A DNA stretch of 63,112 bases, counting the filler. It is 6 parts of 6 records of this genome, joined end to end, with 100 filler letters (N's around TTAATTAATTAA, not from the genome) between each part and the next. Parts side by side here need not be neighbours in the genome. Positions count along the whole stretch, not along the records: positions 56,848 to 59,759 come from SRR11831585_559; 5 more parts are not named here. One strand, given 5' to 3'. Under the pieces are notes generated by a model. The model was not told the origin of the DNA. It did no database searches and saw only the letters and a program-made list of their open reading frames with translations. Shown here piece after piece: positions 36,603 to 63,112 of the stretch (positions are counted from its first letter, which is position 1; every line of letters starts with the position of its first letter). Both the position numbers and the translations under genes were made by a program.

Positions 36603-36611
36603 TGTTCCTCC

Positions 36612-40653: not shown

Positions 40654-42735
40654 TTACGCATTCGAGTAACGTTCCGTCTCCGGCATCCAGCGTTCTATCA
40701 GGGCTTTTGCCTGTTGTGGGTAACGTTCGTGAATATGGCGTGCCAGGCGCTGAACTTCCGGGATCATCGCCTGATCGCGCAGTAAATCCGCCACTTTAAA
40801 TTCAGCATTACCCGTCTGACGCGTGCCTAACAATTCGCCAGGGCCGCGAATCTCCAGATCTTTTTGCGCAATCACAAAACCGTCGTTACTGTCGCGCAGC
40901 ACTTGCAGGCGAATTTGCACCGTTTTAGAAAGCGGCGTTTTGTAGAGCAGCACGCAGTGAGAAGCCACCGCGCCACGACCTACGCGCCCGCGCAGCTGGT
41001 GTAACTGCGCCAGACCCAGACGCTCCGGGTTTTCGATAATCATCAGACTGGCGTTAGGCACATCAACGCCGACTTCAATAACGGTTGTGGCAACCAGCAG
41101 GTGTAGCTCACCTTGTTTAAACGACGCCATCACCGCCTGTTTCTCGGCAGGTTTCATCCGCCCGTGTACCAGGCCAACGTTCAACTCTGGTAGCGCCAGT
41201 TTCAACTCTTCCCAGGTAGCTTCCGCCGCCTGCGCTTCCAGCAATTCCGACTCTTCAATCAACGTACAAACCCAGTATGCCTGACGACCTTCAGTTATGC
41301 AGGCGTGGTGCACGCGGTCAATGATGTCGGTACGGCGGGTATCAGGAATAGCGACCGTAGTCACTGGCGTGCGGCCTGGCGGCAGCTCATCTATCACCGA
41401 GGTATCGAGATCGGCATACGCAGTCATTGCCAGCGTGCGGGGGATCGGCGTGGCGGTCATGATCAACTGATGCGGATGGAAGCCCTGCTGCTGGCCTTTC
41501 TCCCACAATGCCAGACGCTGATGCACGCCAAAACGATGCTGTTCGTCGATAATCACCAGCGCCAGGCCGTTAAACTGCACCTGTTCCTGGAAGATGGCGT
41601 GTGTACCGACAATCATCTGCACCTGACCGCTGGCGATGGCTTCCTGCTGTGCCAGCCGTGCTTTACCTTTCTGCTTACCGGCGAGCCAGCCCACTTCGAT
41701 ACCGAGCGGTGCAAACCAGTTGCGGAAGTTATTGGCGTGCTGCTCGGCGAGTAATTCGGTTGGTGCCATCAATGCTACCTGTTTGCCGTGGGCAATCGCA
41801 CGCAACGCGGCGAGGGCGGCGACCAGCGTTTTACCGGAACCTACATCGCCCTGCACCAGACGCATCATCGGCACATCCAGCGCCATATCGCGCTCGATCT
41901 CCGCCACTACGCGTGCCTGTGCGCCCGTTGGCTTGAACGGTAAGGCGGCGAGGAGTTTATTTTTCAGCGTGTCATTGGCGCTCAGCGGCTGGGCATGAAA
42001 ACGCTGTGCTCCGGCACGTAAGGCTAACATGCTGAGGTTGTGCGCCAGCAGTTCTTCCAGAATCAGACGACGTTGCGCCGGATGCTGCCCGGTTTCCAGA
42101 TCGCTAAGCTGTAGCGTCGGTGGCGGGCGGTGCAAAGTGCGCAACGCTTCCGGTAGCGTCATCATTCCTTGTGACAGTTCCGGCGGCAGGAGTTCTTCAA
42201 TGGCGCAGGTGTCGAGCAGATCCAGCGCCTGGTCGGTTAATTTACGCAGCGTGGCCTGCTTTACGCCTTCCGTTGTTGGATAAACCGGCGTGAGCGTTTC
42301 CTGTAATTCTGGCGTGCTGAGATCGCCCTGCACGCGGTATTCCGGGTGGATCATCTCCGCACCATATTTACCGCGCTTTGCTTCGCCATAAGCCAGTACA
42401 CGGCGGCCCGCCGCCAGGCTATTTTTCATTGCCGCGCTGAAATTGAAAAAGCGCATGGTGAGGATGCCGGAACCGTCGCTGATCTGGCAGGTCATCATCC
42501 GCCGACCGCCGAAGGAGATATTGCAGTTCAGCACTTCGCCTTCCACCGTGGCATAAACGCCCGGCAGTAGTTCTCCGATGGGGTAGAGATGGGTGCGATC
42601 TTCGTAGCGCAGGGGAAGGTGTAAGAGTAGATCCTGCACGGTATGCAGGTTGATTTTCGCCAGTTTGTTACTAAGTGCTGCGCCAACGCCCGTTAGGGAA
42701 CTGAGTGGGACAGCATCTAACAGGCGACCTTTCAT
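40654..42735 (-). CDS. recG: ATP-dependent DNA helicase RecG
   Basis: GDVGSGKT, DEQH and QLRGRVGR motifs; 693 aa from MKGRLL. Confidence 0.98.
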   Translation of the reverse strand: MKGRLLDAVPLSSLTGVGAALSNKLAKINLHTVQDLLLHLPLRYEDRTHLYPIGELLPGVYATVEGEVLNCNISFGGRRMMTCQISDGSGILTMRFFNFSAAMKNSLAAGRRVLAYGEAKRGKYGAEMIHPEYRVQGDLSTPELQETLTPVYPTTEGVKQATLRKLTDQALDLLDTCAIEELLPPELSQGMMTLPEALRTLHRPPPTLQLSDLETGQHPAQRRLILEELLAHNLSMLALRAGAQRFHAQPLSANDTLKNKLLAALPFKPTGAQARVVAEIERDMALDVPMMRLVQGDVGSGKTLVAALAALRAIAHGKQVALMAPTELLAEQHANNFRNWFAPLGIEVGWLAGKQKGKARLAQQEAIASGQVQMIVGTHAIFQEQVQFNGLALVIIDEQHRFGVHQRLALWEKGQQQGFHPHQLIMTATPIPRTLAMTAYADLDTSVIDELPPGRTPVTTVAIPDTRRTDIIDRVHHACITEGRQAYWVCTLIEESELLEAQAAEATWEELKLALPELNVGLVHGRMKPAEKQAVMASFKQGELHLLVATTVIEVGVDVPNASLMIIENPERLGLAQLHQLRGRVGRGAVASHCVLLYKTPLSKTVQIRLQVLRDSNDGFVIAQKDLEIRGPGELLGTRQTGNAEFKVADLLRDQAMIPEVQRLARHIHERYPQQAKALIERWMPETERYSNA

Positions 42736-42740
42736 GGCAC

Positions 42741-43430
42741 TTACCCTGCAGCCTGCATAGTAGCCCACCAGTCGGCATCAGCTTCGATCTCGCCTTGCTG
42801 ATTGACGTGGGGATAAGGCAGGCCTTTGCGTTTTGCGACTTTCGCCAGCACCGGATAGCCGCCTTCAAACAACAGGCGTTGTTGCTCTGCTTCCGGCAAC
42901 ATGCTGTTTTCACGCAGGTACATGCCTGCATTTTGCCGCTGACGCTGGGCTTCGTAAAGAATGAGGGCTGAGGCAACGGAAACATTCAGCGACTGCACCA
43001 TGCCGATCATCGGAATGATGATGTCCTGATCCGCCAGGGCCAATGCTTCCTGCGTGATGCCCGTTTTCTCCTGTCCCATCAAAATGCAGGTCGGGCGAGT
43101 GTAATCAATTTCGCGGAAATCGACAGCGTTATCAGAAAGATGGGTTGCCAGAATCTGCATGCCCTGGCCTTTGAGATGAGCGACGGCATCGCCAATGGTG
43201 CGGTGTGTTTTCACCTGTACCCAGCTGTTACTACCCGCCGCTGCCGAAGCCATGGTGCGCATGCGGCTACCAGGCCAGACGGCGTGAACTTCATGTACGC
43301 CAACGGCATCTGCGGTACGAATAATCGCAGAAACGTTATGAGGTTTGTGGACCTGCTCCATGCAGACGGTCAGATCAGGCTGCCGCCTGGCGAGCATTTC
43401 GCAGATGCGTGCATAACGTGTTGGGTTCAT
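42741..43430 (-). CDS. trmH: tRNA Gm18 2'-O-methyltransferase
   Basis: SpoU motifs HNVSAIIRT and SLNVSVA. Confidence 0.97.
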   Translation of the reverse strand: MNPTRYARICEMLARRQPDLTVCMEQVHKPHNVSAIIRTADAVGVHEVHAVWPGSRMRTMASAAAGSNSWVQVKTHRTIGDAVAHLKGQGMQILATHLSDNAVDFREIDYTRPTCILMGQEKTGITQEALALADQDIIIPMIGMVQSLNVSVASALILYEAQRQRQNAGMYLRENSMLPEAEQQRLLFEGGYPVLAKVAKRKGLPYPHVNQQGEIEADADWWATMQAAG

Positions 43431-43436
43431 AAAACA

Positions 43437-45545
43437 TTAATTTCGGTTTCGGGTGACTTTAATCACGTCTGGCATCACGCGGATTTTGCGCATGATATTC
43501 GCCAGATGCACACGGTCACGAGCGGTCAGACGAATAAAGGCGCTGTAGACGCGACCATCTTTCTCTTCCGTATTCAAACTTTGAATATTCGAAGTCGTGG
43601 TGTTAATTGCCGCCGTCAGGTTTGCCAGCGCACCCTGATGATTGAACATCTCCACCTTGATTTCGGTGATGAACTCCTGCGCCGTCTCTTTATCCCATTC
43701 CACAGCCATAAACTTCTCTGGCTCTTTCTGGTAGCCACGGATATTACGGCAGGATTCATGGTGGATCACCAGACCTTTACCGGGGCTGACGTGGGCGATA
43801 ATCGGGTCGCCAGGAATAGGGCGGCAGCATTTCGCAAAGGTGATCAGCACGCCATCGGCACCTTTAATGGGCAGATGTCCGTGGCTTTGGGTTGCCGGTG
43901 GAATGGAGGCGTCCCCATGTTGCAGATTTTTCGCGACCACCACGCTCATTGCGTTACCAAGTCCGATTTCTGCCAGCAGATCGTCAAGCGTTGCCAGCTT
44001 CATGCGATCCAGCTCGCGCTGAATATTTTCCTGCGGGATTTCATTCAGCTTACGGCTACCACCCAAAGCATGGTTGAGCAGACGACGGCCCAGGCTTACA
44101 GAATCATCACGCTTGAGGTTTTTCAGCAACTGACGAATTTTGGCGCGCGCTTTCGAGCTAACGACAAAGTTCAGCCAAGCGGCATTCGGGCGAGCGCCCG
44201 GAGCGGTAATGATTTCAACGGTTTGACCGCTGGTAAGCGGCTGCGACAGCGGGTAAGGCTGGCGGTCAACGCGTGCGCCCACGCAGGCATGACCGATATC
44301 GGTATGCACTGCATAAGCGAAGTCGACGGGCGTTGCACCGGCAGGCAGCTCGACAATGCGCCCTTCCGGTGTGAAAACGTAAATCTCATCCGGGAAGAGA
44401 TCGGATTTAACGCTCTCGATAAATTCAAACGAACTACCGGCGCTCTGTTGCAGCTCCAGCAGGCTTTGCATCCAGCGCTGGGCGCGGATTTGTGCGGTAG
44501 TACTGGTTTCGCCGTGCTCTTTATAAGCCCAGTGCGCGGCAACACCCATCTCCGCCATCTGGTCCATATCTTCGGTACGGATCTGGACCTCAACCGGCAC
44601 ACCGTGCGGGCCGATCATCGAGGTGTGCAAAGACTGATAGCCGTTCGCTTTTGGAATGGCGATATAGTCTTTCACGCGGCCCGGACGCGGCTTGTACAGG
44701 CTGTGCATCTGGCCCAGCACGCGATAACAGGTGTCAGAATCATTGACGATCACGCGGAAAGCGTAGATGTCCATGATCGAGTGAAAACGCTGCTCTTTGA
44801 GCACCATTTTGCAGTAAATCGAATAAAGATGCTTCTCGCGACCACTGACGCGGCACGGTATTCCCGCTTCCTGCAAACGCCCTTCGATTTCAGAAAGAAT
44901 CTTCTGGATCATCTCTTTACGGTTGCCGCGCGCGGCTTTCACCACTTCTTTGATTACGCGATAACGGTTGGGATACAGCGCCTCAAAACCCAGCTCTTCG
45001 AGTTCGGTTTTAATGTGGTGGATACCTAAACGGTGCGCCAGCGGGCTATAAATTTCGAGAGTTTCACGGGCGATGCGGCGACGTTTGTCCGGGCGAAGTG
45101 AGCCCAGCGTGCGCATGTTGTGGGTACGGTCGGCAAGTTTGATGAGGATGACGCGGATATCCTGCACCATCGCCATAATCATCTTGCGAAAGTTTTCGGC
45201 CTGCGCCTCTTTCTTATCGCGGAACTTGAGTTTATCAAGTTTCGACACCCCCTCTACCAGCTCGGCGACGCTTTTACCAAAAAGCTGTTCCATATCCTGG
45301 TAGGTGGCGGGAGTATCTTCAATCACGTCATGCAGCAGCGCCGCCATCAGCGTTTCATAGTCGAGTTTCATCTCGGCCAGAATGCAGGCAACCGCTACCG
45401 GGTGCGTGATATAGGGTTCACCGCTTGAACGTGTTTGCCCCTCGTGAGCATCACGTGCAACGAGATACGCCTGCCGCAGACGCTTGATTTGGTCTTCCGG
45501 CAGGTAGGTTTGAATCAGTTGATTCAGGCTTTCAAACAGATACAA
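43437..45545 (-). CDS. spoT: (p)ppGpp synthetase/hydrolase
   Basis: 702 aa; HD hydrolase, synthetase, TGS and ACT domains. Confidence 0.99.
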   Translation of the reverse strand: MYLFESLNQLIQTYLPEDQIKRLRQAYLVARDAHEGQTRSSGEPYITHPVAVACILAEMKLDYETLMAALLHDVIEDTPATYQDMEQLFGKSVAELVEGVSKLDKLKFRDKKEAQAENFRKMIMAMVQDIRVILIKLADRTHNMRTLGSLRPDKRRRIARETLEIYSPLAHRLGIHHIKTELEELGFEALYPNRYRVIKEVVKAARGNRKEMIQKILSEIEGRLQEAGIPCRVSGREKHLYSIYCKMVLKEQRFHSIMDIYAFRVIVNDSDTCYRVLGQMHSLYKPRPGRVKDYIAIPKANGYQSLHTSMIGPHGVPVEVQIRTEDMDQMAEMGVAAHWAYKEHGETSTTAQIRAQRWMQSLLELQQSAGSSFEFIESVKSDLFPDEIYVFTPEGRIVELPAGATPVDFAYAVHTDIGHACVGARVDRQPYPLSQPLTSGQTVEIITAPGARPNAAWLNFVVSSKARAKIRQLLKNLKRDDSVSLGRRLLNHALGGSRKLNEIPQENIQRELDRMKLATLDDLLAEIGLGNAMSVVVAKNLQHGDASIPPATQSHGHLPIKGADGVLITFAKCCRPIPGDPIIAHVSPGKGLVIHHESCRNIRGYQKEPEKFMAVEWDKETAQEFITEIKVEMFNHQGALANLTAAINTTTSNIQSLNTEEKDGRVYSAFIRLTARDRVHLANIMRKIRVMPDVIKVTRNRN

Positions 45546-45563
45546 GGGCGACCCGCTTTGTGA

Positions 45564-45839
45564 TTAACGACGACCTTCAGCAATAGCGGTAACGGCTTGT
45601 AATTCAGCGGCTTCCTGCTCTTGCTGTTCCTGGCGTTCGCGAACGTCGAGGATCTGGTTGTTGATCAGACCTTCTTCGATTTCGCGCAGCGCGATTACAG
45701 TGGTTTTATCGTTTTCTTCCGGTACCAGCGGATCCTTTCCGCCTACCTGCATCTGACGAGCGCGACGCGCGGCGACCAGTACCAGGTCAAAACGGTTACC
45801 AATTTTCTCTACAGCGTCCTGAACAGTTACGCGTGCCAT
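45564..45839 (-). CDS. rpoZ: RNA polymerase omega subunit
   Basis: [19 protein letters not shown]. Confidence 0.99.
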
Positions 45840-45893
45840 ACTTAAAAAGCTCCACAGGTGAAGAAATGACTGGGCATGATACTGAAATCAGGT

Positions 45894-49071
<3,178 letters not shown>

Positions 49072-49360
49072 GGTTCTCTCCCTAAAAATCTGTCTGGCAG
49101 GGTAGCGATTTGTGCGCATTGTCACGATTGAGATTTTTTAAGGGGAGGGGAAATTGATAACTTGTAGTTATGTGAAATCGCTATTTTCTGTAGCAGAGAT
49201 GCATTCTTCTGACTTCTTGTCTGAGAAAATGCATAAGAAAAAATAGGTTAAAACTGAGGGGGAAAAGAAAGGTGCAATATTTAGCCATTGTGTTCACTGC
49301 ACCTGGACCTTGGCTTACGCATCGGGTGTCTCAATCAACAAAAAGAGTTTTTAGTTTCTG

Positions 49361-50185
49361 CTATTTCTTCTCTGTAATTTTTACACTGTTTTCCAACTGC
49401 TTGATGCTGACCTGCGGGGTCGGCAACTCCTCAGGCATGGTTCCGCCAAGTTCCTGAATGGTTTGCCTCACCTTGCGACCCACGTCAAAGTGTGTGGTGT
49501 TTGCTTGCTGTTTTGAATTCACGCCATCCCGCTTGAGTTTTTCTTCTGTTTGGGTAGCTCGAAAGAGATTAGCCGCCAGTTCTGTTGAACCCATATGATC
49601 CAGGATCTTCTGATTCTTTTTCAGCCCCTTCCGCTGATGAATAGCTTTCTGATCTAATCCACCATACAGCCCCTGGTAACCATGATTCTGAAATATGGCG
49701 AAATCAGTAGCTGTCGCTACCCCAGCTTGCTGTGCTGCCTCAACCAATTGTTTGTTATGTTCTTTCAACTCATTTCTCAGAAACAGACGCTTTTCGTCTT
49801 CACGAAGTTGCTTAAATGCTTCATCGTCAGCAAGCTCCTGCCGTCGGGTCTGGATAGCAAAATAAGTCTGCCCTGCCGCAATGACCGGTTTCGCAGGGTC
49901 GCCGTTTTGTACTACCAGGTAACAGGCATAGCGGGAGAGTACGATGTCTTTTAATGCTCTTTTGGCATTTGAGCCAATTTTGACCATATCGAGGATCTCC
50001 TCGAAATGGTCATCAATTGTGTGACCACTGTTCTCACAGGCTTCTTTGGCGCGCGTTAATACAGGTATAAAGTGACGATACTCTGAATAACCCAGTAGTT
50101 TCCCAAGTTGTCTTGCTGACCATTGTTCTGCTCCGTTTGCATTAATCAGTTTTATCTCTTCAAAAGGTTGATGATGTTCGTTCAT
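49361..50185 (-). CDS. dinD: DNA damage-inducible protein D
   Basis: WSARQL...LSRYACYL (Bro-N-like); upstream SOS box. Confidence 0.96.
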   Translation of the reverse strand: MNEHHQPFEEIKLINANGAEQWSARQLGKLLGYSEYRHFIPVLTRAKEACENSGHTIDDHFEEILDMVKIGSNAKRALKDIVLSRYACYLVVQNGDPAKPVIAAGQTYFAIQTRRQELADDEAFKQLREDEKRLFLRNELKEHNKQLVEAAQQAGVATATDFAIFQNHGYQGLYGGLDQKAIHQRKGLKKNQKILDHMGSTELAANLFRATQTEEKLKRDGVNSKQQANTTHFDVGRKVRQTIQELGGTMPEELPTPQVSIKQLENSVKITEKK

Positions 50186-50228
50186 TGCCCACTCCATGTG
50201 ATATCAATTGCAAAGAAAGTAAATCTGT

Positions 50229-50248
50229 AACTGTATTTATATACAGTT
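50229..50248. promoter_or_regulatory. LexA (SOS) box of dinD
   Basis: AACTGTATTTATATACAGTT fits CTG-N10-CAG. Confidence 0.93.
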
Positions 50249-50405
50249 GTGAGTATCTCACGTTCTCAGTGTGCTGGGCAAAAAAACATCGCAAAATCTG
50301 GAGCAGGCACGCAAAACAGAATTGAATGTTGCGGGGAAGAAAAATGCCGCTCTGTTTGAGTGGCGGCATTTGTGAAGGCGGAAAAGTAAGAATTGGCGTT
50401 ACGAG

Positions 50406-51269
50406 TTATTCGATGTTCTGAATCTGCTCGCGCATCTGCTCAATCAACACTTTCAGCTCGATGGCGGAGTTTGTCACTTCGGCATTGATAGACTTCGACG
50501 CAAGAGTGTTCGACTCGCGGTTGAACTCCTGCATCATAAAATCCAGACGACGACCAACCGCTTCTTTTTTCTTCAGAATGTTGTAGGTCTCTTTGACATG
50601 CGCTTCGAGGCGATCCAGTTCTTCGGCAACGTCAATTCGTTGTGCCAGCAGAACCAGTTCCTGCTCCAGACGGTTGTTTTCCAGTTGCACCTGAGCATCT
50701 TCCAGCTTCGCGACCAGACGCTCACGCTGCCATTGCAGGATTTCCGGCATATGGGAGCGGACTTTGACCACTTCGGCGGTGACGCCTTCCAGACGCTGCT
50801 CGATCAATGCTTTCAGTGCCTGACCTTCGGTTTCGCGCGCGACAATAAAGTCGTCCAGCGTACCATCCAGCGCCGCGAGAATTTCAGCGGCAATGGCGTC
50901 AAGATCCTGCTCCTGGGCTGCCATCACGCCCGGCCAGCGTAGAATATCAACCGGGTTGATTTCCCCTTCGTCACTCTGCATTTTTACCCAGTTCGCGGCA
51001 GTTACCAGCTGTTTAGCCAGTTTTTCGTTGAGGATCAGCTCACCTTGCGCGCTAACATCTGGCTCATAGCGCAGGGTACATTCCACTTTACCGCGCGTCA
51101 GGCGAGAACGAATACGCTCGCGAACGACAGGTTCAAGGCTACGGAACTGCTCCGGCAGACGAAAGTAAGTTTCCAGATAACGCTGGTTTACCGAGCGCAT
51201 TTCCCAGGTTGCGCTCCCCCATTCACCCTTGATTTCACGCCGGGCGTAGGCGGTCATACTGCGGATCAT
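50406..51269 (-). CDS. yicC: YicC/YloC family endoribonuclease
   Basis: MIRSMTAY...QEFNRESNT...REQIQNIE. Confidence 0.96.
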   Translation of the reverse strand: MIRSMTAYARREIKGEWGSATWEMRSVNQRYLETYFRLPEQFRSLEPVVRERIRSRLTRGKVECTLRYEPDVSAQGELILNEKLAKQLVTAANWVKMQSDEGEINPVDILRWPGVMAAQEQDLDAIAAEILAALDGTLDDFIVARETEGQALKALIEQRLEGVTAEVVKVRSHMPEILQWQRERLVAKLEDAQVQLENNRLEQELVLLAQRIDVAEELDRLEAHVKETYNILKKKEAVGRRLDFMMQEFNRESNTLASKSINAEVTNSAIELKVLIEQMREQIQNIE

Positions 51270-51395
51270 AGACGTTCCTGTTTATAAAAGGAGAGGTGGA
51301 AGGATTATAGCCATCGATGCCTTGTCAGGATAGGAATAACCGCCGGAAGTCCGTATAATGCGCAGCCACATTTGTTTCAAGCCGGAGATTTCAAT

Positions 51396-52112
51396 ATGCG
51401 TCCAGCAGGCCGTAGCAATAATCAGGTGCGTCCCGTTACCCTGACTCGTAACTATACAAAACATGCAGAAGGCTCGGTGCTGGTCGAATTTGGCGATACC
51501 AAAGTGTTGTGTACCGCCTCTATTGAAGAAGGCGTGCCGCGCTTCCTGAAAGGTCAGGGCCAGGGCTGGATCACCGCAGAGTACGGCATGCTGCCACGTT
51601 CTACCCACACCCGTAACGCTCGTGAAGCGGCGAAAGGTAAGCAGGGTGGACGCACAATGGAAATCCAGCGTCTGATCGCCCGTGCTCTTCGCGCGGCAGT
51701 AGATTTGAAAGCGCTGGGTGAGTTCACCATTACGCTGGACTGCGACGTGCTTCAGGCTGATGGTGGCACGCGTACCGCGTCGATTACGGGTGCCTGCGTG
51801 GCGCTGGTAGATGCGCTACAGAAGCTGGTGGAAAACGGCAAGCTGAAAACCAATCCGATGAAAGGGATGGTAGCCGCAGTTTCTGTCGGAATTGTGAACG
51901 GCGAAGCGGTTTGCGATCTGGAATACGTTGAAGACTCTGCCGCAGAGACCGACATGAACGTAGTGATGACCGAAGACGGGCGCATCATTGAAGTGCAGGG
52001 GACGGCAGAAGGCGAGCCGTTCACCCATGAAGAGCTACTCATCTTGTTGGCTCTGGCCCGAGGGGGAATCGAATCCATTGTAGCGACGCAGAAGGCGGCG
52101 CTGGCAAACTGA
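51396..52112 (+). CDS. rph: RNase PH, full length (238 aa)
   Basis: [10 protein letters not shown] motif; ends [16 protein letters not shown]. Confidence 0.97.
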
Positions 52113-52117
52113 TTTTT

Positions 52118-52145
52118 AAGGCGACTGATGAGTCGCCTTTTTTTT
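52118..52145 (+). terminator. pyrE attenuator
   Basis: AAGGCGACT-GATG-AGTCGCCTTTTTTTT between rph and pyrE. Confidence 0.92.
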
Positions 52146-52177
52146 GTCTGTAGAAAAGTAAGATGAGGAGCGAAGGC

Positions 52178-52819
52178 ATGAAACCATATCAGCGCCAGTT
52201 TATTGAATTTGCGCTTAGCAAGCAGGTGTTAAAGTTTGGCGAGTTTACGCTGAAATCCGGGCGCAAAAGCCCCTATTTCTTCAACGCCGGGCTGTTTAAT
52301 ACCGGGCGCGATCTGGCACTGTTAGGCCGTTTTTACGCTGAAGCGTTGGTGGATTCCGGCATTGAGTTCGATCTGCTGTTTGGCCCTGCTTACAAAGGGA
52401 TCCCGATTGCCACCACAACCGCTGTGGCACTGGCGGAGCATCACGACCTGGACCTGCCGTACTGCTTTAACCGCAAAGAAGCAAAAGACCACGGTGAAGG
52501 CGGCAATCTGGTTGGTAGCGCGTTACAAGGACGCGTAATGCTGGTAGATGATGTGATCACCGCCGGAACGGCGATTCGCGAGTCGATGGAGATTATTCAG
52601 GCCAATGGCGCGACGCTTGCTGGCGTGTTGATTTCGCTCGATCGTCAGGAACGCGGGCGCGGCGAGATTTCGGCGATTCAGGAAGTTGAGCGTGATTACA
52701 ACTGCAAAGTGATCTCTATCATCACCCTGAAAGACCTGATTGCTTACCTGGAAGAGAAGCCGGAAATGGCGGAACATCTGGCGGCGGTTAAGGCCTATCG
52801 CGAAGAGTTTGGCGTTTAA
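52178..52819 (+). CDS. pyrE: Orotate phosphoribosyltransferase
   Basis: [10 protein letters not shown] and VDDVITAGT motifs. Confidence 0.99.
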
Positions 52820-52826
52820 AGAAACT

Positions 52827-52850
52827 CGCCGGATGAAAAGTCATCCGGCG
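52827..52850. terminator. REP-like hairpin between convergent pyrE and slmA
   Basis: CGCCGGATGA-AAAG-TCATCCGGCG. Confidence 0.65.
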
Positions 52851-52855
52851 TCATA

Positions 52856-53452
52856 TTACTGCAACTGTGCCGCAATTAGCGGCCAGCGGGCGTCAAAATC
52901 ATCCGTCGGGCGGTATTTAAATTCGCTGCGGACAAAACGTGACAGCATACCTTCACAGAAGGCCAGGATCTGGCTTGCCAGCAGGGTTTCATCGGTGGTG
53001 TAACCTTCACCCTCACGCATTCTCTTTTCACGCAATACCTGGCGCAGCTGCGCTTCAATACGCTCGAACAGCTGGTTGATGCGCCCTTGCAGGCGATCCT
53101 GTTCAAACATTAGCGCATGACCAGTGAGGATGCGGGTCAGGCCAGGATTACGCTCACCAAAACCGAGAAGCAGCAACACAATCAGACGCAGGCGCGCTGT
53201 GGTGTCTTTCTCATCTTTCAGAATCAGGTTGATGCGAGTAATCAGGCTATCTTCGATAAACTCAATCAGGCTATCGAACATGCGGGTCTTACTGGGGAAG
53301 TGGCGATACAGTGCCGCTTCGGAAACGCCGACAGAGGCGGCCAGTTTTGCCGTCGTGATACGTTGGCTTCCATCGCTGGATTCCAGCATCAGCGCCAGAG
53401 ACTGAAGTATTTCCTCGCGACGGTTCCTTTTCGCAGTTTGTTTTTCTGCCAT
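52856..53452 (-). CDS. slmA: Nucleoid occlusion factor (TetR family)
   Basis: [31 protein letters not shown]. Confidence 0.97.
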
Positions 53453-53558
53453 GTTACAAAATACCCCTGAAAATAAGCACTTGCCAGGCGGCACCCACGC
53501 TATGACCGCAAACGAAATGTTTGCGGCTATGTTATGACGTTATTCGGATGCGTATGTG

Positions 53559-54017
53559 TTACTGACGACCAGAGTGACCAAAGCCGCCTTCACCGCGGTC
53601 GGTGGCGTCGAAATCTTCCACCAGATTAAATTCAGCCTGTACTACCGGAACAAAAATCATCTGGGCGATGCGTTCGCCAGGTTGAATGGTGAAGCTGTCC
53701 TGACCACGGTTCCACACGGAAATCATCAACTGGCCCTGATAGTCAGAATCGATCAATCCTACCAGGTTACCAAGCACGATACCGTGCTTATGTCCCAATC
53801 CGGAGCGCGGCAGCATCATTGCCGCCAGTGAAGGATCGGCAATATGAATCGCCAGCCCGGTCGGAACCAGCGTAGTGTCACCCGGAGCCAGTTCTACGGC
53901 GTCGTTGAGACAGGCACGCAGGTCAAGTCCGGCAGAGCCAGAGGTGGCATAAGTCGGGAGCGGAAATTCCTTCCCAACGCGCGGGTCCAGAATCTTAACG
54001 TCGATTTTTTTCATCAT
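53559..54017 (-). CDS. dut: dUTPase
   Basis: [18 protein letters not shown] and [10 protein letters not shown] motifs. Confidence 0.99.
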
Positions 54018-55215
54018 AACGGGTCACGATCTCGTCGAGTAATAATTGGCCAAGGAGCTCTTTGCGCTCAAGCGGTAAGACTTTATCTCCGTCCTGCCAG
54101 AAAAGGTGTAATGCGTTGTTGTCGCTGTTAAATCCTTGAGTTGGCTGGGAAACATCGTTCGCGCAGATCAGATCAAGGTTTTTACGGATACGTTTTTGCC
54201 GGGCGTATTCTTCCACATTATTTGTTTCGGCGGCAAATCCAACGACGTAGGGTCGATGGTCTTTTAGTGCGGCAACGCCTGCGACGATATCGGGGTTTTT
54301 AACCATTTTTATTGTTAATTCATCACCCTGCGTGGCCTGCTTTTTGATTTTCTCTGGGGCCACGGTAGCTGCGCGATAATCCGCCACGGCGGCGCAGCCG
54401 ATAAAAATATTTTGCTGCTGTACAGAAGCATTCACGGCGGCTTCCATTTCCAGCGCGGTCATCACATCAACACGTTTAACAAACGGTGGCGTCGGTAGTG
54501 AAACCGGACCTGATACCAGCGTGACGTTCGCGCCACGACGGGCAGCGGCGGCGGCGATAGCAAAACCCATCTTGCCGGAGCTGTGATTAGAGATATAACG
54601 CACCGGATCGAGCGGTTCACGCGTCGGGCCGGCGGTAATCATAATGTTCAGATGTTTCAGGTCGTTGACGGGCGAAAAATGCGCTACCGCCATATCCACA
54701 ATGGTTAACGGATCGAGCATTCGCCCAGGACCGATATCACCACAAGCCTGACTGCCACTGTCTGGCCCCCAGATGAGCAAACCACGGGAAGCAAGCACCT
54801 CTAAATTATGCTGCGTGGCAGCGGCACGGTACATCTGCTGGTTCATGGCGGGGAGCACGGCTACAGGCGCAGGTGTAGCCAGACAAATCGTCGATACCAG
54901 GTCATTCGCCATTCCGGCAGCAACACGGGCAATCAAATCTGCCGTGGCAGGGGCGAGAATCACTAAATCAGCCCATTTACCCAGCTCAATATGGCCCATA
55001 GCGGCTTCGGCTGCCGGGTCCAGCAGACTGTCGGAAACGGGATAACCAGAAACCGCCTGCAAGCTAAGTGGGGTGATAAAGGCTTTTGCCGCTTCGGTCA
55101 TGGCTACGCGGACGTCGGCCCCGCGATCGCGCAAACGACGCACCAGTTCAGGGGTTTTATAGGCAGCAATACCGCCGCTAACGCCGAGAACGATTTTTTT
55201 ACCGGCCAGGCTCAT
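53995..55215 (-). CDS. dfp: CoaBC (PPC synthetase/decarboxylase)
   Basis: GGIAAYK, PAMN and SNHSSGKMG motifs; 406 aa from MSLAGKK. Confidence 0.97.
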
Positions 55216-55386
55216 GATGATTTTTCCTGTAGGGTGACACCAGAAGTTGGCGATTTTATCACAATACTTTTGTTGTCGTGCCTTCACCTGAGATTCACTT
55301 TGCGAGGCGCTTTCCAGGATTGAAAACTGGCCGTCGATTTAACGAAACGGCTATGACAGGATGCGAGCACCACAAAGGAGGTGAAG

Positions 55387-56055
55387 GTGAAAAACAATTC
55401 ACAGCTGTTGATGCCGCGCGAAAAAATGCTGAAGTTTGGTATTAGCGCCTTAACGGATGTCGAGCTGCTGGCGCTATTTCTGCGTACCGGAACGCGCGGT
55501 AAAGATGTATTAACCCTGGCAAAAGAGATGCTGGAGAATTTCGGCTCTCTTTATGGCTTGTTAACCTCTGAATATGAACAATTTAGTGGCGTTCATGGAA
55601 TTGGCGTGGCGAAATTTGCCCAGTTAAAGGGGATTGCTGAACTGGCGCGGCGTTACTACAACGTGCGGATGCGTGAAGAAAGCCCTTTACTCAGCCCGGA
55701 GATGACGAGGGAATTTTTACAAAGCCAGCTCACGGGTGAGGAGCGGGAGATCTTTATGGTGATCTTTCTCGACTCCCAACACCGGGTTATAACGCATAGG
55801 CGTCTTTTTTCCGGCACGCTAAACCATGTTGAAGTCCATCCTCGGGAAATTATCCGCGAAGCGATAAAAATAAACGCCTCGGCGCTGATCCTTGCACATA
55901 ATCACCCTTCGGGTTGTGCTGAACCCAGTAAAGCGGATAAACTCATTACTGAACGGATAATAAAGAGTTGTCAGTTCATGGATTTACGCGTGCTCGACCA
56001 TATCGTGATTGGGCGTGGAGAGTATGTTTCTTTTGCCGAACGCGGCTGGATTTAA
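55387..56055 (+). CDS. yicR: RadC-like JAB domain protein
   Basis: HNHPSG...D JAMM motif. Confidence 0.95.
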
Positions 56056-56250
56056 CCCGCTATGCGCGATCCTTCGGGATCTTTGTCTGTTCGGGACTTG
56101 AGCACATCGCTGAGTCAGCGTATACTACGCCACCTTTGAGAATCTCGGGTTTGGCATTTGGGCCTGGCAATCGAGAGTTCACATAGAACTGCGATGACCG
56201 GGCTGTAAAGCCTGACGAGGCGCCAATACCCCATACGAAGCTCGAGCTAA

Positions 56251-56508
<258 letters not shown>

Positions 56509-56525
56509 GTACTTAGAGGAAATAA

Positions 56526-56696
<171 letters not shown>

Positions 56697-56710
56697 TTCT
56701 CGCTTTGATG

Positions 56711-56746
56711 TAACAAAAAACCTCGCTCCGGCGGGGTTTTTTGTTA
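56711..56746 (+). terminator. Intrinsic terminator after rpmG
   Basis: AACAAAAAACCTCGC-TCCG-GCGGGGTTTTTTGTT. Confidence 0.85.
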
Positions 56747-56747
56747 T

Positions 56748-56847
56748 NNNNNNNNNNNNNNNNNNNNNNNNNNNNNNNNNNNNNNNNNNNNTTAATTAAT
56801 TAANNNNNNNNNNNNNNNNNNNNNNNNNNNNNNNNNNNNNNNNNNNN
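56748..56847. other. Artificial contig spacer at the E. coli / eukaryote boundary
   Basis: 44 N + TTAATTAATTAA + 44 N. Confidence 0.99.
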
Positions 56848-56910
56848 GTGTGTGTGTGTGTGTGTGTGTGTTCGTGAGTGTGTATGTGTATGCTTATGTT
56901 TGTGTGTTTG
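56848..56910. repeat. (GT)n microsatellite and GT-rich intron end
   Basis: Perfect GT run at the contig start that decays toward the acceptor TTCAG at 56911-56915. Confidence 0.9.
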
Positions 56911-56915
56911 TTCAG

Positions 56916-57300
56916 CTGCCGTGCGTCCTGCAGCCCTCGTACTCGATACCACCGCCACCAAGACCGCTGCACGCCCACACCCTTATACACTTATTGCACC
57001 GCAGAGTCCTACTAGCCCCACTGTCGGTATGCATCCCCGTGTTGTCCGGTTCTGGTTTTTGTATTCTGTGTGCGGGTTCGAATGATTGGGTTAGGTTTAG
57101 GGTTAGGGTTATGATGTTTTCCTTGCCGAGTTTGTGTGTTGCTGTTGATTGGCGTTTCGGAATGTGGTTGCTGACATGTGCTCTGCGAAGGAACTGCTCG
57201 TGGCGACCGATTGAGCTATCGCATCGAGACGCTGCGTCAAAAATGTGAACAAGAGCTCTCTGATGACGTGTTTATGGGCATATACCGGCGGATGCGATCG
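56916..57300 (+). CDS. Two internal exons of a eukaryotic gene, possibly a NIMA-related kinase C-terminal region
   Basis: Exons 56916-57026 and 57191-57300, GT-AG and phase-compatible; ...PQSPTSPTVGTARGDRLSYRIETLRQKCEQELSDDVFMGIYRRMRS. Confidence 0.5.
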
Positions 57301-57331
57301 GTATGCGTTGTGGTAGTTTATGAGTGATCCC

Positions 57332-59011
57332 TCACTCTTCCTTTAATGTGGGCCTATGTGCGTACGTGTCTTTGTGCTGTAAGAGCAGTGCGTCCTTTCC
57401 ATCTATCCGTTTCTTTTGCGTGACACACACACACACACACTCTCTCTCTGTCTCTCGCGCGCGCACACACACACATATATATTCTGGCACACACACACGC
57501 ACACACATCATACAATCACTCGCGCACACACCTCCCACGGTGACGAGCGGCCGCCGCAAGTACTCCGCCGCGATGGACGACGGCTGCTGTGACATCAATC
57601 TCCGATAGCGTACGAGGTCCTCATGGTGCCGGTTCACAAACCGAAGCGCCGACTCCAGGGCCCCGATGGTGATTTGAAACTCGTCCGGTGCCATGCGCTG
57701 GTGAGCGACGGCGAGCAGAAGGTCCGCGTAGTGTGGTTTGGAGGTGGGTGCGGGGAGCGCGAAGGAGGAGAGAGGTACGGGACTCTGTGTAAGTGTGAGT
57801 GAGTGAGTGAGAGTGTGTGACGGGGAAGGGACGGACGGAGGGAGAGAATGAGTGAGTAGGAGAGGTGTGTGCGCCTCGTGAGTGCTACTGGAGTCACCGC
57901 CTCCACGTAAAGTCCCAAACACATGCACACACACACAGAAACAGAGGCTGCGCAAAGATGCAGAGGGTCTCACGGTACGGACACACCCCATACGAGCCAT
58001 GTATGATCAAAAGAGGTGCAACAACGTGTTATAGAGGACGTGCTTTGTTGAGTACCTTGACGGACGGCTTGGCGTCAGCTTCCTCATTGTCCTACGCGCA
58101 TCAAAAGAGTGAGAGAGGACACGCACATACACACAAACACGGATGCGCATACAGCCGATCTCATACACTCGCAATCTTCCCATCACAAACTCGCTGTCTA
58201 TCTCGACTTTCATCTATCACACCCTGACAACATCCTGCACGCGCTGCTCCACGCTACTTAAAATCAAATTCCTCTACATTCGACAGTACAATACGCGGGC
58301 AACACACCCTCCCAACGTTACAGCGCGTAATGTAAACCCCTCAACTCCTTAACCTTCTACAGAGTACATACCGCTGTGCCGGTGCCTGCCGCTCGCACAC
58401 GAAGCGCAAGCAGAGACGGAGGCGCGCCCGTCAGTTCAATACGCATGAATCGGCCCGTTGCGTGGACAGGCATCAGCTACATACAGCGCAACGAAGAAGA
58501 ACATAAACGTAAGCCGGCTCGCGGGGTTTAAGGGAAGCGAGCCGAAGAAGGACACGAACATGCGCGAAGGCGGGATCACCGTGCGGGAGTGATGGTGGGG
58601 TGCAATTCTGCGCAAACGTACAAGAAAAGAGAAGGGGAGCACATGCTGCCGCGGAATGAAGGTGGTCCAGCCGCCCACAGATGTGTTGGAGATGGACCTA
58701 CAAACACATGTGAGAACGCAGCAATGGCATGCAAAAAGATTGCAGTGGAGTACCATTCCCATGACGTGCTTCTCCAGTTGTGCACCTCAATCTCGGAACA
58801 ATTCGCGATGCGCCCAAGGTCAATCACAAGACTTCCTGTCTCCGCACCGGCAATCCACGCTGCTTATTGAAAACGTAAGAATTTACTGTAGAAGTGAATA
58901 CGTGGTCAATATACGTTCGACCGGGCATTCCAGTGACAAGCATGCGGCGTATTCTGCTGTTGAGCTGACCACAGCACCATTATGAGGACCGAACACCTCC
59001 TCAGCACTCAT
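57332..59011 (-). CDS. Predicted 8-exon eukaryotic gene (~257 aa) with an N-terminal discoidin/galactose-binding-like domain
   Basis: Exons 59011-58915, 58862-58754, 58697-58643, 58607-58560, 58476-58372, 58091-58056, 57784-57532, 57402-57332; all GT-AG, 774 nt, no internal stop; exon 4 and the last exon are least certain. Confidence 0.6.
57423..57531. repeat. Compound (CA)n(CT)n(CG)n microsatellite
   Basis: Seen directly in the sequence. Confidence 0.9.
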
Positions 59012-59221
59012 TTGCGGATTCACCCAGCTCGTTGCTCACACGAAAACCGGCAGAGAAGAGATAGAGGAGAAATTGACTCTGCAAATGTCTGCATGTTTGA
59101 AATTCGCGCGTGAATTTGAAACTGTCTGTCAGACTTCGGCGGTTCGCGAAAGTGGACTAGTCAGACTTGAGGACTTCGCATGCATTTGCGGCCCGCCGTA
59201 ACATCGTCACATTCTTCTGTC

Positions 59222-59709
59222 ATGGCGGAGCATAACTCGAAGAATAAGCATGCACCGGATCGGTTATTTGATCAAAAGATGAAAAAACTTTGTTGGGAAC
59301 AGGTAAATTGGCGTGCTCGCTCCTCCGTGGCGTTACGTAATGCAGTGTAGGCAACTGTTGTGCCAGGACGTGACCCGTCACGATGGAGAGCTGACCCTGC
59401 CGGCAATGTGGTTTGTCAGAAATTGAACGGATGTGAGGGACCACTGTGTGTTCAGTACGTTACGCTTGATTTTCTCTCGTCTGATTTTAACGTATCCGTA
59501 GGTACGACCACATTGTTCCGTACTCGAAAGGTTGGCATTGCAGTGTTTGCATGTGTTGCAGACTTCTCACGCAGCTAGGTGCGCAGGCGGAAAGACAGAG
59601 GTCACCAACTGCCAAATCTTGCAGAGTCGTGTGAATTTGCTCAAGAGCAATCGCACAGACGTGGGTGCGGCCGAACTGCAAGGATTCAGCGTGGACGTCA
59701 AGTACTCGG
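59222..59709 (+). CDS. HNH endonuclease domain protein (eukaryotic, spliced), 3' end missing
   Basis: Exons 59222-59302, 59351-59454, 59502-59530, 59587-59709; spliced product contains YDHIVPYSKGGKTEVTNCQILQSRVNLLKSN. Confidence 0.85.
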
Positions 59710-59759
59710 GTGTGTGGCGTTCTCATATTGTTGTGTCGCCATTGCCGGGAACGAGCGTT

Positions 59760-59859
59760 NNNNNNNNNNNNNNNNNNNNNNNNNNNNNNNNNNNNNNNNN
59801 NNNTTAATTAATTAANNNNNNNNNNNNNNNNNNNNNNNNNNNNNNNNNNNNNNNNNNNN
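59760..59859. other. Artificial contig spacer
   Basis: 44 N + TTAATTAATTAA + 44 N. Confidence 0.99.
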
Positions 59860-62800
59860 AGGACCAAGGCACACCGCCCAACGTCAACCTCTACGGCTTC
59901 CACCCGTTCTATATGCAGATGCGCACGGCGTTGTCCAACGCGCACGGTGTGTTTCTGCTCAACAGCAACGCTATGGACGTGGTGGTACGTCCGTGTGTGC
60001 ATGTGCGAGTGTGTGCGTGTTGTGTGTGTGTGCGCGAACCTGTGTTGTCTCTGCGGTCACCCATCTATGCTGGTGTACGTGCTGGCGGGGATTACAGATG
60101 GGGATGTGTGTATTGTATCGTGTGATGTTTGTTCTGTCGTGACCGTGCATATGTTATGATAACGAACCACCATTTACACGTTTTGCAGCTGTCTCCGGGT
60201 ATGCTTCAGTTTCGTACGATTGGCGGCATCATCGACCTGCGTGTGTTTATGGGTCCGACCCCACAACAAGTTGTGGCTCAGTATACCAATGTGGTGGGGC
60301 GCCCTCACATGCCTCCTATGTGGGCCCTGTACGTACCCTGACAATGCTGCATCATGTGTGTTAACAGTGTTGAATGATGTATGGGTGATGTATGTATTGG
60401 TGGTGTGCACTGTTGGCATACGCATTAAGAGTGTTGTATGTACGGGGCCGTGTTTCCACTGCCCGTCGTCCCCTATGTCCTTCCTCTCATCTTGATTGCG
60501 CTAGCGGCTTCCACTAGTGCCGTTGCATCATGTGTATGTGGTGCCAGTGTTGAATGATATACGGGCGATGTATGTATTTGCGCTGTGTACTGTAGGCATC
60601 CACACGATTCCCTCTGTCCTTCTTCTCATCTTGATTGCACTAGCGGCTTCCACCAGTGCCGCTGGGGCTACCACACGTTGCAGGACGTTGAAACCGTAGT
60701 GCAGCAGTACCAGGCCCACAACCTGCCCCTCGACACCATGTGGACTGATATCGATTACATGGACCAGTTCCGCTGCTTTACGTTCGATCCGATGGTGCGT
60801 GTCGAGTGAGTGCGTTTCTTCCGAGCCGTTGTGGTTTTTTTCACCTCCGCGAAACCCATTGCAGGTTATTCCGCGTCTTGTTTTCTTGCGTTGGGCGTGT
60901 TGCTATCAGTGTGGACGGTTGCCCTATGGTGTCTCATTATTGTTCTTTCTTGCATTAGCGGTATCCCCCCACACAAATGGCGGCTTTTGTGGACGGGCTG
61001 CACAAGGCCGGCATGCACTACATCCCCATCACAGACCCTGGCATCTTCATCGACAACAGCTACTTCGCATACCAAGCGCTCATCAATTCATCGTACGCAC
61101 TCACGGCTCCCTGTAGTCTCTGTGTGCGTGTGTTTGTCGCGGGCTGTGTTTGTCGTTGATGTCTTCCCTCTGCTCTGCGTTGTGCGTTGTTTGGGCTTTC
61201 TGCATGCTGTTACTGTTTCTTTCTGCATATCAAGCTTCGTTCTCTTTCATCGCTCCATACGTCACTCCTCATGCGCTTTGATTTGTGTGTTTGTTTGCCC
61301 TCTCCACCAGTGCCTATGTGCGCGATGCTGCCGGGAACCCCTTCCAAGGAAAAGTCTGGCCTGGACCCACAATCTACCCTGATTTTTCCAATCCGGCTGC
61401 ACGCGCGTACTGGGCTGACATGCTGCGTGGGTTCCACGCCACCGTCCCTGTGGACGGCCTGTGGATCGACATGAACGAGGTGTGTGCACCGTGCTCTGAT
61501 GCTCGACGTTCGGAGCAGAGCAACCGAGTGAAGAGGCTGCGCTTGCGTATATCTTTTTGATGATGTGTTTCTTTTAGTATCTGTGCGCATATATTGCGTG
61601 TGTGTGTGCGTGTACGTGTGCGCGTGTGTTGATAATGGAGCTCCTTGGTTGCAGGTTTCCAATTTCTGCGATGGCGAGTGTCCAAGCTCAACCCCGGCAC
61701 CTCACCGTCGACCTGCCGACTCACTCGGGTTCGATCCGAACAACCCGCCCTACGTTCCCGGTACGTGCTGCAACGTGTGTGTTTTAACTGGTGTACCTTC
61801 ACACATACGTATACATGTACGTATCCGTATGCAGATATGTTAAGCACTGCAGTGCAGCATCGTCTTGGGTGTCTCATTGTGTGTGTGTGTATGTGTGTGT
61901 ATGCGTATTTCTGTTTGTGTATGTGTGCGCGCGTGTACGTAGGGGGATCTGTGCTTGACAGCAGAACCCTATCCATGGACGCACAGCACAACGCCACGAT
62001 TGAGTACAACATGCACAACCTGTTCGGGTACACAGAGGGCTGGGCCACCAAGGAGGCGTTGGAGAGTATCCGCGGTGCAAGAAGTGTGGTGATCTCCCGG
62101 TCTACCTTTAGCGGCTCCGGGTATCATAACGGACACTGGTTGGGTACGTACGCCGTGCGAGAAGTTGCGTGTTAGTGTTCGCCTCTGATCCGCTTACTGA
62201 AGTTTCTCTGTGTGCGCGCTCTGTACTCCATACGGAGAATACCAGGGTAAACTATGCATATTCGTGATCGTGGTCGTGTGTATGTATGTGTTTATATGAA
62301 CCACATAGTCATATCGTGCGATATAACGTGTATGTATGTGTTGTGTGTGTGATTGTGTGTGTGGCAACAGGCGACAACGACTCCACCTTTCAGTCCATGA
62401 AAGAGTCCATTGCGGGGATTCTCGACATGAGCATCTTTGGCATCCCGCTTGTGGGTGCGGACATCTGCGGGTTCAGCGGGAACACCACGGAGGAGCTGTG
62501 CACACGATGGATGCAGCTGGGCGCTTTCTACCCATTCAGGTATGTTGTAAGTGTTTGTGTGTGTCTTCATGTACTCTATGTATTCGGCATGGGCATTGCC
62601 TGTGGGGTTCGTTTCGAGTCGCGGCCCGATGCTCTTGGACCGTCTCTATCGTGTCCCGCTTGTTCCGTGCTATTTGTTATATTCTCTCACTCCTCACTCA
62701 CCCTTCTTCGCCCCGCCACCTCTCTCTTGTTTCCCCACAGCCGCAACCACAACTCGATCCTCATGAACCCGCAAGAACCCTACGTGTTCTCGCCCGCAGC

Positions 62801-63043
62801 CGTCGACATTATGCGCGCGGCCTTGCAGACCCGCTACTCCCTGCTGCCCTTCCTCTACACGCTGTTCGTGGGCGCACACCAGTCCGGTTCCTTAGTTGCC
62901 GCACCGTTGCTGTACGCGTTCCCACAGGATCGCAACACGTGGTCGGTGGATGAGCAGTTTATGTGGGGCCGTGAGCTGCTGATCAGCCCTGTGCTGGAGG
63001 AGGGAGCGAGCTCGGTGCAGGCGTATATGCCGCAGGGGCTGTG
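59860..63043 (+). CDS. GH31 alpha-glucosidase (lysosomal acid alpha-glucosidase/maltase-like), internal fragment of 9 exons
   Basis: Exons ~59860-59984, 60189-60328, 60644-60794, 60959-61092, 61311-61479, 61655-61760, 61943-62143, 62371-62539, 62741-63043; motifs [30 protein letters not shown] (nucleophile), HWLGDN (acid/base), GADICGF, FSRNHN. Confidence 0.95.
60348..60661 (+). repeat. Imperfect tandem duplication covering an intron 3' end and exon start
   Basis: Copies at 60348-60522 and 60524-60661 both begin TGCATCATGTGT and end CTCATCTTGATTGC(G/A)CTAGCGGCTTCCAC(T/C)AGTGCCG. Confidence 0.88.
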
Positions 63044-63112
63044 GTATGTGGACGAACGCTGTGGTTGGAGTATGTGTGCGTTTGTGTATGTGTGTGTGTG
63101 TGTGTGCGTGTT

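Follow-up and report, generated by a model that had tools for sequence, protein, structure and literature searches.

The DNA described here is a stretch of 63,112 bases, called the window throughout, which carries at the 3' end of the fifth of its six contigs (2.9 kb, positions 56848-59759) a small gene whose exons are separated by three very short introns. The best explanation of this gene, which we hold with good confidence, is a contig-truncated eukaryotic gene encoding a small stand-alone protein of a conserved HNH (beta-beta-alpha-metal) family. From the exon and homologue comparisons given below, it is highly likely that the gene is a genuine nuclear one with spliceosomal introns whose 3' end was lost to the contig end, and jointly that it belongs to this small HNH family. 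The family spans protists to crops and very probably has one genetic phenotype (rice wsl9), with no known biochemical activity. The window copy adds a probably non-plant member to a barely studied family and is a clean case of a catalytic dyad placed on a 29-nucleotide (nt) micro-exon, which is missed by callers based on open reading frames (ORFs).

Gene structure and support for the spliced protein

The coding segments of 81, 104, 29 and 122 nt sum to 336 nt, which is divisible by three, and the introns of 48, 47 and 56 nt all have GT..AG ends. The features of the gene are as follows; HSP stands for high-scoring segment pair and aa for amino acids.

59180..59182, plus strand: alternative in-frame upstream ATG, 42 nt upstream, adding 14 residues; the frame 59171..59350 reads ...RMHLRPAVTSSHSSVMAEHN...
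59222..59302, plus strand: exon 1, 81 nt, 27 aa, start of the N-terminal module (R-x-F ... C-W); aligns with homologues from residue 13; 109 HSPs across junction 1
59303..59350, plus strand: intron 1, 48 nt, GTAAAT..GTGTAG, phase 0; ends in an in-frame TAG
59351..59454, plus strand: exon 2, 104 nt, 34 aa plus a split Q codon (CA/G); VPGRDPxRWRxDxxGN and a conserved Cys pair before the catalytic strand
59455..59501, plus strand: intron 2, 47 nt, GTACGT..CCGTAG, phase 2 in the Q62 codon; 116 HSPs across the junction
59502..59530, plus strand: exon 3, 29-nt micro-exon, YDHIVPYSK with the catalytic Asp-His (D64, H65); tblastn HSPs at 59500-59529 in a separate frame
59531..59586, plus strand: intron 3, 56 nt, GTTGGC..GCGCAG, phase 1 in the G72 codon (G/GC); 65 HSPs across the junction
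59587..59709, plus strand: exon 4, 122 nt plus the first base of a split codon, GKTEVTNCQILQSRVN.., with Asn79 and Asn88; tblastn HSPs at 59586-59708
59710..59759, plus strand: probable start of intron 4 (GTGTGTGG...), cut by the contig end; donor-like G/GTGTGT after ..KYS

The unspliced DNA is unable to encode the domain, since the last three bases of intron 1 are an in-frame TAG and each of introns 2 and 3 causes a frameshift. An earlier reading of the window made from the letters alone (the sequence-only reading) had placed the catalytic DH on a 29-nt micro-exon that ORF finders would miss, and this is what we find, YDHIVPYSK lying on exon 3 and the unspliced frames being broken. The three tiny introns and the spliced protein given in that reading also hold, as the exon translations match piece by piece.

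Exon 2 alone (34 aa) was used as the query in a HMMER search of 1.84 billion representative proteins (E<=1e-3), and 132 proteins were matched with identity up to 79%. The spliced protein was joined by exon coordinates and then compared with these 132 matches, 121 of which align to the whole of it, including the other three exons; HSPs across all three junctions number 59, of which 41 are gap-free. Since exons 1, 3 and 4 took no part in retrieving the homologues, their alignment is independent support for all three junctions, and the pattern is far more than chance would give. The closest matches are a protein of Andalucia godoyi, with 63% identity over 100 aa (E 4e-44), and one of Cannabis, with 57.6% over 99 aa (E 4e-45), and identity to the fetched family members (249 in number) does not exceed 64%. 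A tblastn search with nine homologues located the exons, in three frames, at 59198-59717 and gave no match at E<0.01 in the rest of the window; the gene is therefore a single locus with no second copy there, and the window does not contain the absent C-terminal exons.

Eleven of the 132 exon-2 matches were set aside as non-homologous, none of them matching the whole protein. These are P0128 and ten long repeat proteins of 820-5792 aa (P0005, P0006, P0007, P0010, P0014, P0028, P0037, P0059, P0100 and P0115) which match only the G-N-x-V-C..G-C-x-G-x-x-C stretch in exon 2; eight of the ten have 3-9 matched stretches each (P0005 and P0028 list none), and they look like Cys-rich repeat proteins with no relation to the HNH family.

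Both ends of the protein need a comment. The choice of start codon (59180 or 59222) is uncertain by 14 codons, and the N-terminus is variable among homologues. Position 59709 had been taken as the end of the gene, which does not stand: this base is the first of a split codon, and the frame stays open with no stop up to the contig end at 59759. The open frame together with the putative fourth donor (G/GTGTGT) makes the protein C-terminally incomplete, the absent part being about 40-70 residues.

A eukaryotic family with its own N-terminal module and common introns

As judged from its sequences, the family to which the window protein belongs is conserved and eukaryote-wide, with mostly plant members. 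Thirty family clusters were looked up, 18 of which carry an organism name. Angiosperm members come from Cannabis, Erythranthe, Centaurea, Syzygium/Eucalyptus, Vanilla, Diospyros, Primulina and Ipomoea, and other streptophyte members from the moss Ceratodon and the algae Klebsormidium and Closterium; a Joint Genome Institute (JGI) entry labelled 'Mesen1' we take to be Mesotaenium, also a streptophyte alga. Outside the streptophytes are the red alga Cyanidiococcus, the jakobid Andalucia godoyi, Rozella allomycis, the aphelid Amoeboaphelidium protococcarum and Diphylleia rotans, and there is a member in a ciliate transcriptome (Pseudomicrothorax) that is possibly prey-derived. A family profile made from 30 sequences was used to score 8,000 candidates and gave 659 proteins at E<=1e-5. 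Among the best 120 of these 659, which are 160-260 aa long and labelled 'HNH domain-containing protein', 'HNH endonuclease' or 'uncharacterized', the organism-named ones are all from angiosperms, save one from a streptophyte alga. The plant HNH family that the sequence-only reading had named is thus real, and its suggestion of an old eukaryotic family is borne out by this range of members, from jakobid to moss and angiosperms, and by the common intron positions described below.

Conservation was scored over 23 gap-free members, plants to protists. All 22 invariant residues are present in the window protein, as are 10 of the 11 near-invariant ones, L89 standing in place of R at the eleventh. 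D64 and H65 (23/23), N79, C80, Q81 and Q84 are invariant, N88 is found in at least 90% of members, and a conserved Cys set is formed by C24, C55, C60 and C80. A hidden Markov model (HMM) of the 48-residue N-terminal module (N-module; R-x-F..C-W..A..V-P-G-R-x-P-x-R-W-R-x-D-x-x-G-N), built from the 23 members, scores 89.6 bits against the window protein (E 4e-30), and the corresponding model of the core (D-H-I-x-P-x-S-K-G-G-x5-N-C-Q-[IV]-L-Q..N..K) scores 73.0 bits.

In a careful tree the window protein is placed outside two plant groups, the angiosperm clade A (support 94/97) and the streptophyte clade B (100/99), and beside a divergent Centaurea paralogue (94/39). A quick tree had grouped it with Andalucia and P0112 (SH-aLRT, the Shimodaira-Hasegawa-like approximate likelihood ratio test, 92), a grouping that the careful tree does not recover; because the placement is unstable, we claim no donor or sister lineage for the window copy. 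In the ESM Atlas a eukaryotic HNH cluster (Streptophyta) comes nearest, and bacterial HNH clusters rank after it.

Relatives continue beyond the point where the window protein is cut with a C-terminal E-L-D-x-I-E-x-A-x-Y-G-[DN]-V helix, and many have a CaaX-like end. Such ends (CRIQ, CKIQ, CRMQ, CFIS, CGIM, CPIM, CLIM, CKTM and CSIQ) occur in many members of different lineages (P0071, P0081, P0004, P0156, P0094, P0085, P0160, P0015, P0041, P0051, P0040 and P0129), and from the motif they suggest a prenylated HNH protein. Some members carry further sequence. In three asterid proteins (P0111, P0057 and P0090) the HNH domain is preceded by an N-terminal piece of HCF136, an assembly factor of photosystem II (PSII_BNR, Primulina), or by an R-R-Q-L-I twin-arginine-like leader (Erythranthe, Ipomoea), from either exon shuffling or fused gene models; P0004 (276 aa) has three tandem copies of the N-module and P0008 (406 aa) an HNH domain with a weak RVT_2 match (16.9 bits, cutoff 31.6), and these two are probably tandem duplicates or chimeric gene models.

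Bacterial relatives were collected by scanning 185,579 prokaryotic species genomes with the pattern D-H-I-V-P-x-S-K-G, which gave 411 tblastn relatives, the best 80 being kept. These best 80 of 411 are HNH proteins of the ordinary CxxC type, frequently joined with further domains, and bacterial cores reach 50-70% identity over about 30 aa. The core HMM matches 80/80 of the loci and the N-module HMM none of the 4,862 ORF pieces taken from them, so that, within this pattern-seeded sample, the N-module looks specific to the eukaryotic family.

Intron positions in other members were inferred from protein models with read-through or retained introns. At the site of intron 1 (between codons 27 and 28, phase 0) the homologue P0023 has a 17-aa V...Q insert at the same place and in the same phase. 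The site of intron 3 (codon 72, phase 1) bears a 21-aa in-frame insert in P0017, whose flanking G, L, G fit a 63-nt GT..AG intron of the same phase, and several plant clade-B models diverge directly after PYSK, at this same site. The codon with intron 2 also bears an insert, in P0112, the phase there reading 1 and not 2. For the putative intron 4 (after ..K-Y-S, phase 1) 164 pattern-matched family proteins were compared: 126 of them continue with D and 18 with G, and 15 of the 18 G-continuing models run into non-family sequence, including those of Cannabis, Diospyros, Centaurea, Rozella and a second Diphylleia isoform. The intron is retained at this site in P0009, P0095 and the Diphylleia isoform P0151, with P0009 and P0095 resuming family sequence after the insert. 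Several members have an additional intron after C-Q-x-L-Q, which is absent from the window gene. Three of the four window intron positions (1, 3 and the putative 4) therefore recur in other members. Being common to different lineages, they argue for an old, vertically inherited eukaryotic gene and not a recent transfer, and the window gene with the read-through models of other species is evidence for an ancient gene structure.

HNH genes are commonly mobile, and the window gene might accordingly encode a homing endonuclease of a mobile kind or have come recently from a bacterium or virus. The bacterial core identities given above would fit this, and so would the best match in a Foldseek search of a viral library with the Andalucia model, a small protein of the giant Bodo saltans virus (E 3.7e-4), many further rows named HNH following with weaker scores. 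The viral match, however, covers 85 columns at 20% identity, the N-module is absent from the best 80 bacterial loci, and the spliceosomal intron positions are held in common with plants, Rozella and Diphylleia. The features of a mobile homing endonuclease were not found, the gene being a single locus in the window with spliceosomal GT..AG introns and orthologue-like relatives across eukaryotes. We regard mobility or recent acquisition as hardly credible, and the sequence-only reading's 'domesticated copy' is without support, as nothing points to a mobile ancestor.

Contigs of the window and the host of the gene

The window is a concatenation of separate contigs, so that neighbours across a joint are not genomic neighbours. 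The contigs and the joints between them are given below.

1-17539, 17640-35011, 35112-39017 and 39118-56747: first four contigs, bacterial
56848-59759: fifth contig, with the HNH gene
59860-63112: sixth contig, with a partial GH31 gene on the plus strand
17540-17639, 35012-35111, 39018-39117, 56748-56847 and 59760-59859: five identical copies of an artificial contig joint, N44-TTAATTAATTAA-N44 (six-frame stop linker)

The first four contigs have long back-to-back ORFs throughout, bearing bacterial domains, with genes that include fruA, glnD, degP, clcA, paoC, recG and spoT. They are identical (100%) over their full length to E. coli K-12 laboratory strains (MG1655, DH5alpha, ER1709, C600) and are therefore E. 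coli K-12 DNA, most likely carry-over of the cloning host in the source assembly, which is relevant to any user of that assembly. The last two contigs appear to be eukaryotic, and for the HNH contig there was no match to E. coli.

Outside the gene, the HNH contig (56848-59200) contains CA/TG microsatellites, whose frames translate as H-T-H-T or C-V-C-V. This part yielded no recognisable second gene, and a Pfam search of a 222-aa ORF (57332-58000, minus strand) and three plus-strand ORFs within 58532-59201 gave zero matches. The sixth contig carries a partial alpha-glucosidase gene of glycoside hydrolase family 31 (GH31; Pfam Glyco_hydro_31 domains) with several introns rich in TG/CA repeats. 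One of its exons matches human lysosomal alpha-glucosidase at 116 bits and the enzyme of sugar beet at 71 bits.

In a 2.9-kb contig placed beside four contigs of E. coli DNA, the HNH gene could itself be eukaryotic contamination and not from the target organism of the assembly; its GC content at third codon positions (GC3, 0.55) is also unlike that of the GH31 exon (0.82), and the two contigs may be of separate origin. Against this, the HNH and GH31 contigs are alike in GC content (0.526 and 0.535) and in CA/TG-repeat content (84 and 96 nt) and differ in both from the E. coli contigs, and with no fetched member more than 64% identical the gene is not from a known plant contaminant. We consider contamination quite improbable.

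A non-plant host had been proposed in the sequence-only reading. On the evidence of the two contigs this is likely for the HNH contig, three points speaking against a land plant: introns of 47-56 nt, the low identity to fetched members, and a GH31 exon closer to the human enzyme. The host may also be a green alga.

Catalytic core, possible activity and comparison with known systems

The DH...N...N core that had been read as of HNH type is supported. The DH on exon 3 and N79 and N88 of the window protein align with the D-H, Asn and Asn of the Cas9 HNH domain. When the family profile was searched against the Protein Data Bank (PDB), the best matches were the HNH domains of Cas9 (E 0.017) and ZRANB3 (E 0.093), again with D-H, N and N aligned. 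Pfam PF01844 is listed (E<=0.01) for 17 of 20 homologues, and HNH and endonuclease VII families of PHROG match the core with E down to 3e-7; weak, core-only matches are given by NCBIfam Cas9d (about 15 bits) and by type II restriction endonuclease models of PADLOC (14-22 bits). In an AlphaFold2 model of the Andalucia homologue (a stand-in, 63% identical; mean predicted local distance difference test score, pLDDT, 84.3) strands 58-62 and 77-81 and helix 82-88 surround the catalytic residues. No likeness to solved structures was found outside the catalytic core of about 35-45 residues. A CxxC...CxxC zinc finger flanking the core is typical of many HNH members, though not universal. The window protein has no such canonical finger; its upstream cysteines are spaced C-x5-C-x4-C, and Q-S-R-V-N takes the place of the C-x-x-C-N of bacterial relatives.

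One member of the family very probably has a known phenotype. Rice WSL9 is Os03g0169800, and its description (PMC7354284) gives the wsl9 mutation as G to T at nucleotide 383, changing Cys to Phe, and the phenotype as cold-sensitive white-striped leaves with defective chloroplast development, defective splicing of the rpl2 intron and altered rpoB editing. We translated by hand the primers in its supplement. The primer for the derived cleaved amplified polymorphic sequence (dCAPS) marker reads Q-G-G-K-S-T-L-E in frame with codon 128 and ends at the single-nucleotide polymorphism. Since this peptide matches the family block S-K-G-G-x-S-T-L-E-N-C-Q, the mutated Cys128 of WSL9 corresponds to C80 of the window protein, the invariant cysteine of N-C-Q. 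The cloning and reverse-transcription (RT) primers give the start M-V-G-R-K-P and the end G-G-C-R-I-Q-stop. In a table of a 2026 review (PMC13533914), Arabidopsis At3g47490 is entered as an HNH endonuclease of plastids whose CaaX motif is CRIQ. Clade B has members ending GGCRIQ, GGCKIQ or GCRMQ; from these peptides and tails, WSL9 and At3g47490 very probably belong to this plant clade. The word 'uncharacterised' used in the sequence-only reading must accordingly be narrowed: a function is defined in part, as a phenotype, and it remains true that no biochemical activity is known.

Several points weigh against an HNH nuclease gene as we describe it. Nuclease activity of recombinant WSL9 was not detected by its authors (PMC7354284). 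The link between WSL9 and the family consists of three primer-encoded peptides and a table entry, not a full sequence. PF01844 is borderline, 9 of the 20 homologues reaching its 21.4-bit gathering cutoff, and a Foldseek search of the PDB with the Andalucia model gave no match at E<1, HNH domains ranking first at E>=1.4 over about 45 columns. Pfam matched no family (0) with single exons, because the domain is split over three of them, and neither exon 4 nor exon 2 extended by 6 residues found a match in a word-indexed protein search (33 and 4 word-sharing candidates), which is not evidence of absence because the exons are too short for that search. Catalysis, metal use, the zinc site, substrate and cellular location of the family we infer, as we do the nucleic-acid contacts. 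The gene is, moreover, incomplete, and an inactivating lesion could lie in the downstream exons.

The last point leads to a decaying pseudogene or gene fragment, which would fit with the missing stop codon and 3' end, with the GC3 difference from the GH31 exon and with the failure of the word-indexed search to find a gene model containing the HNH exons. All four exons are nevertheless open, the three introns keep their GT..AG ends, no invariant residue has been lost, and the truncation coincides exactly with the contig end and with a family-wide intron position, so that decay seems to us very unlikely and a genuine gene, truncated by the contig end, remains the preferred reading.

For the protein of such a gene, the following mechanism may be proposed. 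His65 would be the general base that activates water; Asp64 and Asn88 would bind one divalent metal, and Asn79 would brace the hairpin, as in the HNH domains of Cas9 and ZRANB3. A structural zinc is probably bound by C24, C55, C60 and C80 instead of by a CxxC..CxxC finger, and the Arg/Trp-rich N-module (R34, R38, W39, R40, D42, G45 and N46) probably grips nucleic acid. The C-terminal helices absent from the window, with the CaaX-like end in many relatives, may serve localisation. The protein would most likely nick or cleave DNA or RNA in the maintenance of genome or organelle nucleic acid. Its rice relative WSL9 is required in the cold for plastid RNA to mature.

The chief alternative is that the protein is a cofactor that binds nucleic acid but is catalytically silent, for instance a helper in RNA splicing or editing, with the HNH fold as a binding scaffold. 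The wsl9 mutant does have an RNA phenotype, and endonuclease activity of WSL9 was not detected (PMC7354284); the window protein also lacks the second CxxC that is canonical in HNH zinc fingers. The conservation of D64, H65, N79 and N88 across the 23 members is hard to explain without catalysis, however, and one negative in-vitro assay is weak evidence. A silent cofactor is in our view unlikely; that the window gene product is an active nuclease has somewhat better than an even chance.

As for the original role of the family, its presence in plastid-lacking protists (Andalucia, Rozella, the aphelid and Diphylleia) means that the ancestral job was not plastid RNA maturation as in rice. To our knowledge, eukaryotes seldom have stand-alone HNH nucleases that serve a housekeeping role. 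We put forward tentatively, as something to which we give a little less than an even chance, an ancient and eukaryote-specific HNH nuclease family, possibly as old as the last eukaryotic common ancestor (LECA), with its own N-module, introns that predate the split of plants, Holomycota, CRuMs and Discoba, and CaaX-like tails in many members, whose ancestral job would be an undiscovered nuclear or mitochondrial nucleic-acid transaction.

Among known systems, the HNH domains of Cas9, human ZRANB3 and the Geobacter Gme nicking endonuclease have the same D-H ... N ... N beta-beta-alpha core pattern as the window protein. Only about 35-45 residues align, with E from 0.017 to more than 1; these domains are without the Arg/Trp-rich N-module, and they are parts of large proteins or bear CxxC zinc fingers, unlike the small stand-alone family of the window.

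The angiosperm clade A ('HNH domain-containing protein', 160-190 aa, such as the 'F6A14.21 protein' of Citrus and those of Eucalyptus and Leersia) is 50-58% identical to the window protein over about 100 aa and shares with it the N-module, the core and the Cys pattern, and its retained-intron models show the putative intron-4 position of the window. Clade A proteins have a conserved C-terminal ELDxIEMAVYGDV..CRC..C tail, and the window protein stands outside the clade. In the literature searched there was no functional study of clade A, and no study of the family beyond WSL9; At1g18680, presumably the Arabidopsis member of clade A, and At2g23840 had zero occurrences, and PMC11712025 contained no passage on HNH. 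With WSL9 and At3g47490 the window protein shares the cysteine C80 and the DH..NCQ core, but it lies outside clade B and has no N-terminal extension. The highest identity over about 100 residues is to Andalucia godoyi ANDGO_03134 ('endonuclease', jakobid, EukProt), which likewise has no N-terminal extension and differs in being full length, 179 aa with a C-terminal helical region.

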